DNA of 32,000 nucleotides from Burkholderia diffusa (GCF_902499115.1 NZ_CABVPN010000001.1:261866-293865); one strand, 5' to 3'. Counted from the first letter of the stretch, positions 6,933 to 19,025 are shown. A program made the numbers and translations. The notes: generated by a model from the letters alone, not told the origin.

Positions 6933-6948
6933 TGTCGGTCAACCGACA
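6933..6948. repeat. Island palindrome copy f
   Basis: TGTCGG-TCAA-CCGACA. Confidence 0.6.
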
Positions 6949-7073
6949 TAGCAGATCTCAGAAATCGCCGCCAAGCCACTGCTACCAGTGCTCTTCTGCT
7001 GATGAGCACGTCGTTGCAGTTACGTCTGAACCCCCGTAGTATTTCCCCATATCAAAAAAAGCTACGGGGCTAT

Positions 7074-7982
7074 ATGGCTGGTTTTCGCTATTACAACGTG
7101 CAGTTGCTTCCCATCAACGTGCACGAGCGGGGCGACGTCGGGAAAAAAGGGTATCAAACGTTTTTCGCCGGTCTGAAACAACGCGTCGTCAAGGCGGTAC
7201 AGGATCGCCGAGTTGAGGCAATCGCATACGGCCTTCGGAGCGGCCTACTCTTTTCGGCCTTCACCGTTGAGCCCGCCGACGATTACGCTCGCGGCAAATT
7301 TCTGAAATTCGACGTTGCCGAATCGGTCATAGACATCTACACCAGCCAGACCGTGTTCACGGCTTCCCCTGGCGCGAGCGCTCACCCGACGTACTTCCGG
7401 TTCGCCTTCGACTATGATCGGCACATCTTGGCAATCGAAGACACGCAGGGTCGGCTACCGTCGACTGGACAACTGATCAAGGCTTTATCGCATCTGCTTG
7501 AGCCGGTCCGATCTGACCTCTACCCAGAATACATTCTGACGATTGATCAGCTTACCGCAAGCGACGCCGTACAAAAAGTCTTTAAGGAAGCAAAGGGCTT
7601 CAGACGTGTTCACGTGACGGTCACGTTCGCAAATTCGGACAAATTCGTCCAGAGCTTGCAGAAAGAGCTTCGTGACAAGAATATCCATCAGGTTGAGCAT
7701 ATCGAAAAGGCGAGCAAGGGCAGCCTTATGGATTCACCAACCGAGTTCGGGAAATTCCTCTTGCAAATCGCTCAACGTTATGGGAACGCATCAATAAATT
7801 ACGTCGCGGGCCAAGGGAAAACCCTGAAACGAAAAATCTTTCGCATGAAGGATCACCCTGTTAGGCAAATCCTCAAGGAAGGAAAGAAGGAAACCGAACC
7901 TCAGTTCATCGATCGCGTATTCCAATCAATTCCCGGTGCCGAAAAGAAAGCCAGCGCGCCCGTAAACGACGCTCACGATTGA
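7074..7982 (+). CDS. Hypothetical soluble protein (302 aa), family not recognised
   Basis: ATG at 7074 is in frame with ORF 6753..7982. The upstream extension crosses the ferredoxin relic and a palindrome, so it is discounted. Protein-like composition, MAGFRYYNVQLLPINVHERG.... Stop 7980-7982 lies 8 nt before the next gene. Confidence 0.65.
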   Translation: MAGFRYYNVQLLPINVHERGDVGKKGYQTFFAGLKQRVVKAVQDRRVEAIAYGLRSGLLFSAFTVEPADDYARGKFLKFDVAESVIDIYTSQTVFTASPGASAHPTYFRFAFDYDRHILAIEDTQGRLPSTGQLIKALSHLLEPVRSDLYPEYILTIDQLTASDAVQKVFKEAKGFRRVHVTVTFANSDKFVQSLQKELRDKNIHQVEHIEKASKGSLMDSPTEFGKFLLQIAQRYGNASINYVAGQGKTLKRKIFRMKDHPVRQILKEGKKETEPQFIDRVFQSIPGAEKKASAPVNDAHD

Positions 7983-7990
7983 ACGCAAAA

Positions 7991-8614
7991 ATGTGGGACT
8001 CCATCCATCGATTTCTGTATGCGCTCTTGATCCGGGTTCCGATCTTGGGAGATGTCGTTCTCATCGTGAACGGTTACGCTTATGAGGGTGAGCACGACGC
8101 ACTGGTGAGATTCGCACCGCCAATGCACTGGTTTCGTCGAATTGTTCCGAAGCTCGTGCTATCTGGGCTTTTTGCAATTTGGATCACATGCAAGCTAACG
8201 TCGCACTTCAGCAAGCTCCCAGATCCGGCGACCAAGTTTACCGACATGCTAACTGGCATATTTCCCAATCTGCTTGGCTTCGGAATTGGGGTTTATGCGT
8301 TAATTTTCGCCCTACCCGAGTCTTTCTTTAAGTCTTTGCGAGGGGAGCGAAAAACAACGACGCAGACCGCTGGGCAGCCGAGTTCACCGCAAGCAAATTC
8401 CGAAACGCCTCCAAACATGATTAATGCGGATATGGCGTATCCGCTGGTCATGATAGCACTATCGATCGCTTTCGGTGCTTTCGTACAGTTCTTCATGACC
8501 ATTTTGAGCTTCTATGTCTCAGTGTGGCTGCTTTCATACTGCTTCGTCCTGATGCTTGAGCTGATCAGCCTAATTTACGTTTCCGCCTATAAGTCGATCA
8601 GTGACAAGCAGTGA
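7991..8614 (+). CDS. Hypothetical integral membrane protein (4-5 predicted TM helices)
   Basis: ATG at 7991; the track start at 7979 is TTG. Hydrophobic segments include LVLSGLFAIWITCKL, LLGFGIGVYALIFAL, YPLVMIALSIAFGAFVQFFMTIL and VSVWLLSYCFVLMLELISLIYV. A hydrophilic Q/S/T/P-rich loop separates them. Confidence 0.65.
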   Translation: MWDSIHRFLYALLIRVPILGDVVLIVNGYAYEGEHDALVRFAPPMHWFRRIVPKLVLSGLFAIWITCKLTSHFSKLPDPATKFTDMLTGIFPNLLGFGIGVYALIFALPESFFKSLRGERKTTTQTAGQPSSPQANSETPPNMINADMAYPLVMIALSIAFGAFVQFFMTILSFYVSVWLLSYCFVLMLELISLIYVSAYKSISDKQ

Positions 8615-8817
8615 AAAATGCGGCGAAACCGCGTCGTATGTGAATCCGCCACAAGTCCACGGAAGGTCTGTCAAACCAGCGCCTCGCTGCCTGCGACTGT
8701 CCATGTAATCGACATTTCCCCTACGGTTGGCCCAACGAGCCGCCAAGCGTTTCTCTAGCCGAATCGACACCAGCGCAGCCTCACGCTAAAGCAAAGCGCC
8801 AGAACGCCGTTAAATCG

Positions 8818-17065: not shown

Positions 17066-17104
17066 GCAGTGAGCAAGAGCCGAGACTAAAGCCGAGGCAC
17101 TCGC

Positions 17105-17941
17105 TCACACTCCATTTCTCGCCGACTTGATGTCGAGGAGGTTGATTTGATCGATCTTGTCCTTGTGAATGACGATGGTCAATTTTGCCGGATACTTAAA
17201 TCGCATCTCGCTGATTCTGAATGTCCACAGCATTATTTTCAGCAAATCTTCATCGCCAATGTTCTTGTGACCTTTGATTCGCGTAATTCCCGACCCAAAG
17301 ACAGTGGTCGAAACGCTCTTTTGAGCGTACACATTGTTCACTTTATCCCAAAAATTTATCAAAAACTCCAGGTACTCCGGCATCGTCAGCAATGCCCTGT
17401 TGTTTTCATCGAACTTAGAGAATGCAGTAAGAAGATAATCCTTATAAAGACAAACTGTCCCGATTTGATATCGCCTCTTTTTACCCAGCTTTCTGGCCTC
17501 GTTACTTCCCACCACCTCACTGAGATCGAAAGCATAATTATCTATATAGTGATCCAATTCTGAGACAGGCGTACCGAGATGCTTCTGAATGAAGATACCG
17601 TTGAGGGACTTTTCGCCAATTATTTTATTGTCTACTAAAGTATCGAAGTACTCATTGAAAGCAATTGCTTTCAATCCCGATTCCTGAAATATATCGCCAA
17701 CCTTGACAGTGACATTACTTCCCTCTACGTCTATGTCGATGCTATTCAGATTGTTCGACCAAACCCACAGCGCCACGTAAATTACGGCTAACAACGCGAG
17801 GAAGATCCAACCACCGCGCAATTTCCAGTTAGCAGGAATATCAACAAATAGCACGACCACTGATAATGCACTGCCGATTACGGACGTGCTTCCAAGGAAT
17901 TTTTTGACAATTCGCTTATCAAAGAAACTTACCTTTGCCAT
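17105..17941 (-). CDS. thsA: Thoeris type II ThsA-like effector: 2 TM helices plus Macro-like domain
   Basis: N-terminal hydrophobic helices (LGSTSVIGSALSVVVLFVDI; GGWIFLALLAVIYVALWVW). These are followed by VKVGDIFQESGLKAIAFNEYFDTLVDNKIIGEKSLNGIF, which matches my recollection of the ThsA Macro family. Lies directly downstream of a TIR gene. Confidence 0.65.
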   Translation of the reverse strand: MAKVSFFDKRIVKKFLGSTSVIGSALSVVVLFVDIPANWKLRGGWIFLALLAVIYVALWVWSNNLNSIDIDVEGSNVTVKVGDIFQESGLKAIAFNEYFDTLVDNKIIGEKSLNGIFIQKHLGTPVSELDHYIDNYAFDLSEVVGSNEARKLGKKRRYQIGTVCLYKDYLLTAFSKFDENNRALLTMPEYLEFLINFWDKVNNVYAQKSVSTTVFGSGITRIKGHKNIGDEDLLKIMLWTFRISEMRFKYPAKLTIVIHKDKIDQINLLDIKSARNGV

Positions 17942-17971
17942 AGAGTTCGAAACTCGCTCGGGTGTTATTTT

Positions 17972-18535
17972 TTATGGCGTGTATCGATAGACATCGGGGT
18001 TCGCCTTACTCCCGACGACGAAGCCACTATTCAAAAGCGCACTTTTAATAACGCTTTTTTGCATAGGAACATGAAGTGTAGGCACGTTCTTCATTGAGTC
18101 GCGAAAAATAGGAAGATTGTTCCAGAGATTTTTCACCGTTTGCTTCAACGCCCCGTTCACCAGAAGGCTCTCCTTCGAGTCGTACTCGGGATATATAACG
18201 ATGACCGGCAGCCCTTGATCATTGATGCCATAGTCGATCTCTTCCCTGAGTGCCAAGGAATTTTTTGTGGCCGAGCTCAAAATTAGGACGATATTCTTCG
18301 AACTCCGAAGACGCTCCCTGAGTCGCGGCTTCAAGGTCAACTCCCAATTGCTACCGTCTCGGACGCTGTAGGTCTTGTCGTGCGCGTCATTAAAGGGAAA
18401 CGACGCGTCGGCCCCTTTCCACGTCCGAAGAAGGTTGTAGAAGCAGAAATCTTTCGTCGCATGAGCACCTAATGAACTAGGATTGAATGGCTCAGAGACA
18501 TAGAAGGCAGTGTAGTTTCCGTTTCGATACGCCAT
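17972..18535 (-). CDS. thsB: Thoeris ThsB-like TIR-domain protein
   Basis: 187 aa. MAYRNGNYTAFYVSEPF...YNLLRTWKGADASFPFNDAHDKTY...NIVLILSSATKNSLALREEIDYG is the bacterial TIR-like (DUF1863/ThsB) pattern. RBS GGGGAG. Confidence 0.7.
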   Translation of the reverse strand: MAYRNGNYTAFYVSEPFNPSSLGAHATKDFCFYNLLRTWKGADASFPFNDAHDKTYSVRDGSNWELTLKPRLRERLRSSKNIVLILSSATKNSLALREEIDYGINDQGLPVIVIYPEYDSKESLLVNGALKQTVKNLWNNLPIFRDSMKNVPTLHVPMQKSVIKSALLNSGFVVGSKANPDVYRYTP

Positions 18536-19000
18536 AACAACTCCCCTATGTGTAGGGAAAACGAGTGCATTCGAACTTCGATATGCATCACTTCTTGCAG
18601 TGATGCGAATTTATGACAGCTGCCCCGAGACAGCTGCAAATAACAACTGCGTCGGCGACCGAATACGCTCGGACTTGCTTGCAAATGAGCTGTCGGCATC
18701 GCAACGTTGAGGCCGCTTCGGAGCCTTTCGGCGATGTCTTGCTACTCTCGATCCGAGTGCTAACCGAAAACGGTCACTTGACTTGCAAGATTGTTTGCGG
18801 CCGAATGCGCTACCACATCGTACTTTTTGCCACCCCACACCGTCGCCGGTAAACACTACCGTAAACCTTTCATCAGATAAAGATCTGAACACAAAATACG
18901 CCGGAAAAACGCTTCCGTCACGCAAGATGTCGTACTCCGCAAGCCATGCACAACTCGGTGTCCGTTCCCGAATCGCAAGCCGATCTGACCAGCTTTCGGT

Positions 19001-19025
19001 AAATTGTCGGTCGAACCGACGTTTT
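19001..19025. repeat. Island palindrome copy e (imperfect outer arms)
   Basis: AAATTGTCGG-TCGAA-CCGACGTTTT. Part of a ~45-nt repeat (18976-19020) matching 17018-17061. Confidence 0.6.

Follow-up and report, generated by a model that had tools for sequence, protein, structure and literature searches.

The recurrence of one short palindrome in the intergenic gaps of a small genomic island raises the question as to whether these sequences are sites at which blocks of genes, defence systems among them, are gained, lost or inverted. The stretch of DNA analysed, referred to throughout as the window, covers 32,000 nucleotides (nt) of Burkholderia diffusa (NZ_CABVPN010000001.1:261866-293865) and contains a 13.6-kb island (6652-20262) that is inserted in a ferredoxin gene and has a low G+C content of ~50% compared with 67% in the backbone, which makes up 18.4 kb of the window. 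An original prediction made from the sequence alone had listed six copies of the palindrome and proposed that they divide the island into cassettes exchanged in an integron-like or shufflon-like manner. Our analysis suggests that defence and other genes are exchanged by an undescribed, integron-like mechanism, in which the palindromes would be the recombination sites of sRec, the short catalytic-domain-only tyrosine recombinase of the island, a reading to which we give an even chance on the strength of sequence comparison.

An exact pattern search for TGTCGG-N3-7-CCGACA found five copies in the window, at 6933 (with a 4-nt centre), 10589, 12372, 13586 and 17046 (copies f, a, b, c and d in Table 1), where shuffled sequences are expected to hold 0.01 matches and none of 100 shuffles reached five. 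The sixth copy (e), at 19005-19021, reads TGTCGGTCGAACCGACG and departs from the pattern by one mismatch, its right arm being CCGACG. The backbone contains no copy, and its single near match is a one-mismatch chance hit within coaD at 20705. The repeat is therefore real and confined to the island as had been claimed, and the extended stems proposed for copies a, b and d are correct. The six listed copies stand, while the inventory had missed a palindrome of a second type (14975-15001), a related one (9590-9611), a degenerate one (8699-8713) and possibly a further related site at 10904-10920. The second type is built as GTC-N3-N3-N3-GAC, like the other sites of the wider family, and its neighbouring cargo varies in relatives. 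Two adjacent pairs of copies share their centres. Copies b and c have a TAA centre and 96% identity over 23 nt, lie in direct orientation and flank the sRec operon; d and e have a CGA centre, are likewise in direct orientation, flank a Thoeris defence system and belong to a longer repeat of ~48-50 nt that takes in the 3′ end of a 67-amino acid (aa) open reading frame (ORF). The copies had been described as block separators, which holds for these two pairs and fails, in several relatives, at the junction after a cysteine-rich (Cys-rich) ORF, where there is no palindrome. Variable spacers had also been put forward as the behaviour of tyrosine recombinase targets. This is wrong, since partner sites of such enzymes need matching centres, and what we observe is that lineages have the outer arms in common and that neighbouring copies (b with c, d with e) agree in their centres.

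We collected related loci with an integrase-alignment scan of one genome per species, which returned 80 loci, and with a metagenome scan using an sRec alignment, which returned 79 further loci (individual loci are given below by L numbers). The closest islands are those of Burkholderia sp. Ax-1724, B. seminalis, B. guangdongensis, B. cenocepacia, P. heleia, P. tropica, B. glumae and Paraburkholderia sp. A1RI-2L, all at the same coaD-ferredoxin site. Their common core order is integrase, terminator hairpin, palindrome, 67-aa ORF, cargo, second-type palindrome, DUF6641 gene, Rep-like gene, palindrome, sRec, 81-aa ORF, Cys-rich ORF and finally cargo or a pair of winged-helix and MASE1 genes. Across these islands the positions of e, c and b are kept as the flanking sequence diverges, copy c being conserved in L002, L003, L161 and L170 despite divergent flanks and copy b travelling with the winged-helix/MASE1 module, and the cargo varies widely (a 750-aa protein, HerA-SIR2, a GmrSD-like protein, DUF2971 and others). 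A distant Methylophilaceae island (L040), in which the integrase is 45%, sRec 60% and DUF6641 47% identical to that of the window, has a palindrome of its own, AGCGTCTAG-TWA-CTAGACGCT, in four copies, which closely follow the integrase, a cargo gene, DUF6641 and sRec; one copy has a compensated 3-bp change. Further palindromes of the same build recur in sRec loci, namely TGTCGTT-TAA-AACGACA, TGTCCTT-TWA-AAGGACA, AGTCGGT-TAA-ACCGACT, AAGCGTCGCG-TTA-CGCGACGCTT and GCGTCCAG-TTG-CTGGACGC. The consensus of 75 distinct sites is AAR-YGTC-NNN-TWA-NNN-GACR-YTT (23-25 bp, with family members of 17-25 bp), in which the outer GTC/GAC arms are conserved and the central 9 bp differ from one lineage to another. 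Even sRec proteins that are close relatives have sites with different centres, and one element may contain several centre types, a variability that is predicted for a crossover region and not for a sequence read by a protein.

The palindromes track the short tyrosine recombinase module and neither the host genome nor the large integrase. Perfect palindromes of the form GTC-N3-N3-N3-GAC number 64 in 677 kb of sRec loci and 6 in 1.1 Mb of control islands, which have the same integrase family and no sRec, a 17-fold difference, and the loop is TTA or TAA in 40 of the 64. Among the 80 islands of the integrase scan at least two sites are present in 4 of the 6 that have the sRec/DUF6641 core and in 1 of the 74 that do not (Fisher p = 5e-5). 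A site lies within tens of bases, mostly 0-10, past the sRec stop codon in ~25 of the 79 metagenome loci; elements carry up to about ten sites, and there are essentially none in the host flanks of L040, L121, L161, L166 and L171. Uptake sequences, parS and host repetitive extragenic palindromic (REP) elements were considered and rejected, the sites being island-limited and absent from host flanks, as was a LexA box, the sequence of which misfits CTGT-N8-ACAG.

This distribution bears on two alternatives that call on other proteins of the island. The palindromes might be hairpin nick sites of the Rep-like HUH protein, allowing rolling-circle copying of the intervening segments, as at rolling-circle origins or in REP elements with HUH transposases. 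HUH enzymes recognise hairpins, and this protein, which carries HYH and YITK motifs and is encoded 300 nt from copy c, had been put forward as a possible actor in the original prediction. Its gene was however detected in 11 of the 79 sRec loci, and palindromes persist in elements without it, L121, L040 and L157 carrying four or five, which makes the protein an unlikely actor. It also lacks a Y1 transposase family match, its match to PF23343 is below threshold, and the window copies share no conserved loop nick motif; we regard this explanation as highly improbable. Operators of an island DNA-binding protein (winged-helix, DUF6641 or another core protein), by which the island would be silenced or insulated as a whole in the manner of the KorA/KorB operators of IncP plasmids or the stoperators of Cluster A mycobacteriophages, are in our view quite unlikely. 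The palindromes are two-fold symmetric 17-25-bp sites with many copies per element and restricted to the elements, and the winged-helix gene directly adjoins copy b. An element can nevertheless contain several different centres, centres vary between elements that are nearly identical, the sites are located at 3′ ends and not at promoters, and most palindrome-bearing elements are without a winged-helix gene (2 of the 79 loci have one). Nor do operators predict the precise palindrome duplications at block gains or the block inversion described below.

Gene content in related elements changes exactly at palindromes in several cases (L148/L157, L144/L146 and L003/window), as the original prediction implied it should. 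In these three pairs one block is inserted exactly at a palindrome and the duplication is limited to the palindrome. L148 and L157 are 96% identical, and L148 contains an extra block of 817 bp, consisting of a DUF4258 toxin and a helix-turn-helix antitoxin, at the sRec-proximal site, with the palindrome (~27-33 nt) as the sole sequence on both sides. L157 itself is a four-site array in the order sRec, site, RelE/Phd pair, site, small ORF, site, AAA-p259-p300, site. A 3.1-kb flagellin block in L144 is flanked by two copies of a site of which L146 has one, and its left and right flanks match L146 on the corresponding sides. A porin gene in L003 lies between two degenerate copies at a place where only copy b is present in the window, L166 and L168. 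The site-flanked AAA-p259-p300 block is in turn inverted in L157/L148 relative to L040/L121. When the internal homology ends of all related pairs are taken together, 12% fall at most 10 nt from a perfect site, compared with 4% for random intergenic and 1.2% for random positions. Relative to L006 (B. seminalis), Thoeris in the window is an insertion (17066-18975) with a 48-nt duplication made up of the palindrome and the 3′ end of the 67-aa ORF. L171 (Paraburkholderia sp. A1RI-2L) has a fuller form in the order integrase, site, 67-aa ORF, spacer, ThsB, ThsA, site and second 67-aa ORF, in comparison with which the window has evidently deleted most of the first copy of this ORF. The position of Thoeris relative to the 67-aa ORF differs among related islands and a palindrome adjoins it each time. 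The proposal of integron-like gain, loss and inversion is thus partly supported, by the three palindrome-duplicating gains, the inverted block and the placement of Thoeris; it falls short at some junctions, which have no palindrome, and in that the Thoeris insertion is equally compatible with homologous recombination.

Were the palindromes 3′-end hairpins of transcription units (factor-dependent terminators, insulators between convergent genes or mRNA-stabilising stem-loops), their overlap with the module junctions would follow simply from the intergenic location of the latter. Nearly all copies lie ~10-110 nt past stop codons, often between convergent genes, and the outer stem pairs vary yet stay complementary, including the 3-bp compensatory change in L040, which fits selection for a hairpin. 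Intrinsic terminators combine a G+C-rich stem-loop with a U-tract, whereas most copies are without a U-tract and a terminator scan flags copy c alone, on the minus strand. Canonical U-tract terminators instead stand directly beside or between paired palindromes, some elements having two sites 63-119 nt apart that enclose only such a terminator, and the palindromes are therefore not simply terminators. Ordinary terminators would also not be expected to have a common sequence within an element and a common GTC/GAC core in different lineages (the shared arms had already led the original prediction to dismiss independent terminators), and the exact palindrome duplication at three block gains is left unexplained. 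We consider 3′-end hairpins unlikely, with a small but appreciable chance of being right.

The gains could also have come about with no dedicated enzyme, the palindromes being host-mediated hot spots (short-repeat homologous recombination, slippage or template switching) that are copied along with the modules. Perfect palindromes are slippage hot spots, the repeats that flank Thoeris exceed the palindrome (48 nt in the window and ~260 nt in L171), and a cargo block in L002 is flanked by a duplicated 208-nt piece of DUF6641 together with its hairpin. This explanation, which we hold to be decidedly unlikely, does not account for the conservation of the GTC/GAC arms and TWA centre across lineages, nor for the tight linkage to a conserved and catalytically intact recombinase gene with a site directly after it, and repeats of 25-33 nt are poor substrates for RecA.

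We now return to sRec as the candidate enzyme. The protein consists of the catalytic domain only (PF00589, 5e-27) and the tyrosine recombinase catalytic set (R-K-H-R-H/W-Y) is intact, R46, K77, H143, R146, H169 and Y178 being invariant when four sRec proteins with 60-95% identity to that of the window are aligned. Among solved structures the catalytic domains of XerA, XerD and IntI4 come closest to it. More than 5,800 homologue clusters exist, mostly of 188 aa, a size that corresponds to FimB/FimE-type invertases, to the models of which there are weak, nearly full-length matches. The core site of a tyrosine recombinase has inverted arms that are bound by the enzyme and staggered cuts 6-8 bp apart. 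Applied to the palindromes, a site would be the 17-25-bp palindrome, the outer arms of which (AAR-YGTC / GACR-YTT) would be bound by two sRec monomers, and the central ~9 bp, NNN-TWA-NNN in most lineages and GGT-TAA-ACC or GGT-CGA-ACC in the window, would form the crossover region within which sRec would cut. Centres would have to match between partner sites and would in this way define which sites pair. Two matching sites would recombine such that the block between them is excised as a circle or inverted, and a circle carrying one site could insert at a resident site, leaving the block flanked by two copies. Recombination of b with c would yield a 1,214-bp circle with the recombinase operon and that of d with e a 1,959-bp circle with Thoeris. 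Generalised, this would be a widespread and undescribed cassette platform of the Burkholderiales, in which sRec and the palindromes capture, excise and invert blocks within small integrative islands, a functional parallel of integrons built from different parts, with phage defence, toxin-antitoxin, porin and flagellin genes as the cargo seen; for the platform as a whole we put the chance at slightly less than even. A telomere-resolvase substrate was considered because the sites are perfect palindromes and was set aside, the enzyme being far too small and the sites too many per element.

A number of points weigh against recombination by sRec. The link to the enzyme rests partly on a collection of loci by sRec homology and on linkage, and DUF6641 is equally linked. 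Arms of ~7 bp with a symmetric centre are unusual for tyrosine recombinases. TTA and TAA sites occur in mixed orientation, and the elements should therefore be unstable if recombination were frequent. The centres differ in four of the six window copies, which are therefore not partners of one another. Around 80% of the homology ends are not near a perfect site, and there is no palindrome at the junction after the Cys-rich ORF in L170, L161, L171 and L002, where the junction is the stop codon, nor at the cargo junction upstream of the 67-aa ORF. Pycsar has the second-type site at one end and no palindrome at the other; it is not a separate cassette, and the 'Rep-like plus Pycsar block' of the original prediction is a composite. 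The Thoeris duplication extends 25 nt past the palindrome in the window and ~260 nt in L171, and because flanking sequence is included homologous recombination of the Campbell type explains it as well as site-specific insertion of a circle. Among about 170 loci we found no block that recurs in a second context.

The arrangement resembles integrons and pdif modules in function and, to a lesser degree, Fim-type invertases, and belongs to none of them. As in integrons, a tyrosine recombinase gene stands beside a series of gene blocks, every one of which has a palindromic site behind it, and the block gained by L148 relative to L157 is at the recombinase-proximal site. The cargo likewise includes toxin-antitoxin pairs and phage defence, and, as with chromosomal attC repeats, the sites of one element are alike and those of different lineages are not; site-bounded blocks and gains at the recombinase-proximal site are seen in relatives only (the L157 array and the L148 gain). 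Unlike an integron integrase, sRec (188-193 aa) lacks both an N-terminal domain and the IntI-specific insertion, and it scores far below the integron-integrase thresholds (47.7 bits against a cut-off of 265 for TIGR02249 and 25.9 bits against 435 for NF011946). The sites are near-perfect palindromes of 17-25 bp with a GTC/GAC core, whereas attC sites are imperfect palindromes of 57-141 nt with R''-L''/L'-R' boxes, GTTRRRY cores and extrahelical bases. Blocks, including multi-gene operons, are moreover found in both orientations, and the platform sits inside an integrative island with its own large integrase. The pdif modules of Acinetobacter plasmids, which are served by host XerC/XerD, are similar in that short palindrome-like sites bound modules of a mobile element in either orientation and in that the recombinase is Xer-like, as is sRec by its closest solved relatives XerA and XerD. 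A pdif site however has 28 bp (11-6-11), distinct XerC and XerD arms and host enzymes, whereas here a catalytic-domain-only recombinase is encoded by the element and the 17-25-bp sites have identical arms, an odd-length centre and no resemblance to dif. FimB and FimE are tyrosine recombinases of ~200 aa acting on short inverted repeats, and the inversion of a site-flanked block between lineages recalls these invertases and the shufflons (Rci/sfx); they differ in flipping one promoter or shuffling the segments of one gene, in contrast to the genes and operons gained, lost and inverted here. REP elements with their REP-associated tyrosine transposases (RAYT), and Cluster A stoperators, likewise form many short specific copies at gene ends, the sequence of which changes along with the carrier genome or element. 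REP elements are nevertheless genome-wide and tied to a Y1 HUH transposase, while there are no copies of the palindrome in the 18.4-kb backbone or the flanks of five relatives and the Rep-like protein has no PF01797 match; stoperators are asymmetric 13-bp repressor sites, and neither kind is associated with site duplication at gene-block gains. Full-text literature searches on DUF6641, on integron-like systems of palindromes and a tyrosine recombinase and on attC-like or non-integron cassette arrays returned no description of such a system, in agreement with the original prediction, which had recognised no described system; one paper on a B. cenocepacia island proved unrelated, that being a tRNA-Leu island.

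The genes of the island were annotated with Pfam and PADLOC, which identified Pycsar, Thoeris, sRec, DUF6641, DUF4747, a MASE1 protein and a winged-helix protein (Table 1). DUF6641 is present in 47 of the 79 sRec loci, usually 1-2 kb upstream of sRec and divergent from it. By sequence neither it nor the Rep-like protein has a solved relative, and a single-sequence structure prediction of DUF6641 gave an unusable model (predicted local distance difference test score 42). Pycsar comprises a PycC cyclase, with modest matches (E = 2e-9), and an effector that combines cyclic nucleotide-binding and TIR domains (PycTIR, 314.6 bits), and Thoeris comprises ThsA with a Macro domain (415.8 bits) and ThsB with a TIR domain. 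ThsA (P0241-P0244) is 99-100% identical in B. diffusa, P. tropica, B. glumae and B. cenocepacia, and this near-identity across species and genera points to recent horizontal spread of the island or of the Thoeris block. In the P. tropica island (L168) an insertion sequence element with an rve-type transposase lies between PycC and DUF6641 (12988-14034). A hairpin upstream of sRec at 13538-13559, AAAGGTTTT-AGCA-AAAACCTTT, is kept in L003 (~13600-13625) by compensatory changes (CCAAATG...CATTTGG) and may be a regulatory element of the recombinase gene. A GCGGAAATTT-like motif is common to 12405-12415 and 13625-13635, ~15-25 nt to the right of b and c, and is also found beside the c site of L003; it could be an accessory binding site. 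Many elements carry with the sRec module a block of three genes, for a protein with a WWW(A/E)F motif, a protein of ~250-290 aa and a small clamp-loader-like AAA ATPase (L121 10663-13151, L040 16819-19470, L157 4441-7119 and L161 16055-18272), of which the window retains only a distant homologue of the middle gene (9638-10516). L109 and L116 have two sRec/DUF6641 modules per contig, 6-8 kb apart, which appear to be tandem or nested elements. Islands without sRec contain pairs of identical hairpins with 8-10-bp stems and mutually reverse-complementary loops (L011 at 14450/18169, 3.7 kb, and L033 at 16604/17443, 0.8 kb), which may be invertible segments of another kind.

The island is bounded by two 38-nt direct repeats, the attachment (att) sites, which are 89% identical, and the same att core is found at both island ends of L004 and L006. 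Integration took place in the first 11 codons of the ferredoxin gene and the island brings a new start, MALMITDE in place of the MSLMITDE left at the coaD side, so that ferredoxin is now expressed from island sequence. Just before palindrome f, 6832-6906 is an inverted 75-nt copy (92% complementary) of the 5′ part of the ferredoxin gene (6545-6619); the fragment is also present in L006 and L004 and is thus a conserved feature of the left end in this island family. The integrase belongs to a family that is widespread in Burkholderiales, and the hairpin downstream of its gene is likely its terminator. In L002 (9413-9745) and L004 (8001-8984) winged-helix (and MASE1) genes lie outside the current island, between coaD and att, and look like relics that an earlier member of this island family left at this site. 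The complete island gave zero megablast matches to plasmid and phage record collections, and scans of viral contigs with DUF6641 and sRec alignments found no relatives. At gathering thresholds Rfam matched only a tRNA-Gln (TTG) in the window, at 2528-2604 in the backbone, which has no relation to the island.

Table 1 Palindromes, genes and borders of the island in window coordinates
Feature	Position	Strand	Sequence or product	Remarks
Left att repeat	6614-6651		38-nt direct repeat	Overlaps 5′ end of ferredoxin gene 6382-6648 (-)
Palindrome f	6933-6948		TGTCGG-TCAA-CCGACA	4-nt centre; ~280 nt inside left end
Degenerate palindrome	8699-8713		GTCCAT-GTA-ATCGAC	L006 homology starts here; L006 has intact palindrome at 13843
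Related palindrome	9590-9611		TTGTCGAT-TAACTG-ATCGACAA	Between ORFs 8818-9513 and 9638-10516
Palindrome a	10585-10609		GGAATGTCGG-CCGGA-CCGACATTCC	10-bp stem
MASE1 membrane protein	11307-12017	-		MASE1 match
Winged-helix protein	12011-12358	+	115 aa	Weak LexA_DNA_bind/MarR matches; paired with MASE1 gene
Palindrome b	12370-12390		ATTGTCGGT-TAA-ACCGACAAT	8-9-bp stem; same centre as c, direct orientation
sRec operon	12412-13437	-	sRec 12856-13437 (193 aa); 81-aa ORF 12614-12859; Cys-rich 98-aa ORF 12412-12708	
Palindrome c	13586-13602		TGTCGGT-TAA-ACCGACA	149 nt upstream of sRec
Rep-like HUH protein	13905-14408	-	167 aa	HYH and YITK motifs; PF23343 match sub-threshold
DUF6641 protein	14459-14968	+	PF20346	Conserved sRec partner
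Second palindrome type	14975-15001		TGGCAGGTCCGA-ACT-TCGGACCTGCCA (GTC-CGA-ACT-TCG-GAC)	Between convergent DUF6641 and PycC
Pycsar	15010-16697	-	PycC cyclase 15010-15825; cNMP-binding TIR effector 15783-16697	
67-aa ORF	16827-17030	+		Conserved; directly beside integrase-proximal palindrome in relatives without Thoeris
Palindrome d	17043-17065		AAATGTCGG-TCGAC-CCGACATTT	9-bp stem; CGA centre common with e, direct orientation
Thoeris	17105-18535	-	ThsA 17105-17941; ThsB 17972-18535	
Palindrome e	19001-19025		AAATTGTCGG-TCGAA-CCGACGTTTT	Preceded by 25-nt remnant of 67-aa ORF 3′ end (18976-19025 in all)
Hairpin downstream of integrase gene	19032-19069		15-bp hairpin	Separate from palindromes; conserved in L002 and L006
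Island integrase	19131-20117	-	328 aa, PF00589	Right end of island
Right att repeat	20225-20262		38-nt direct repeat	Island end adjoining coaD (20319-20867, -)

If recombination at these palindromes is borne out, it would provide a concrete mechanism by which genes for defence systems and surface proteins are exchanged between small genomic islands in Burkholderia, with a reach that includes the cepacia complex, B. glumae, Paraburkholderia and many freshwater Betaproteobacteria. It would represent a second natural cassette-capture system beside integrons, with a minimal recombinase (188 aa) and a very short site, which would bear on the turnover of defence islands and might offer a compact recombination tool. 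It would also give a role to a large protein family now annotated only as 'XerD' or 'tyrosine-type recombinase'.

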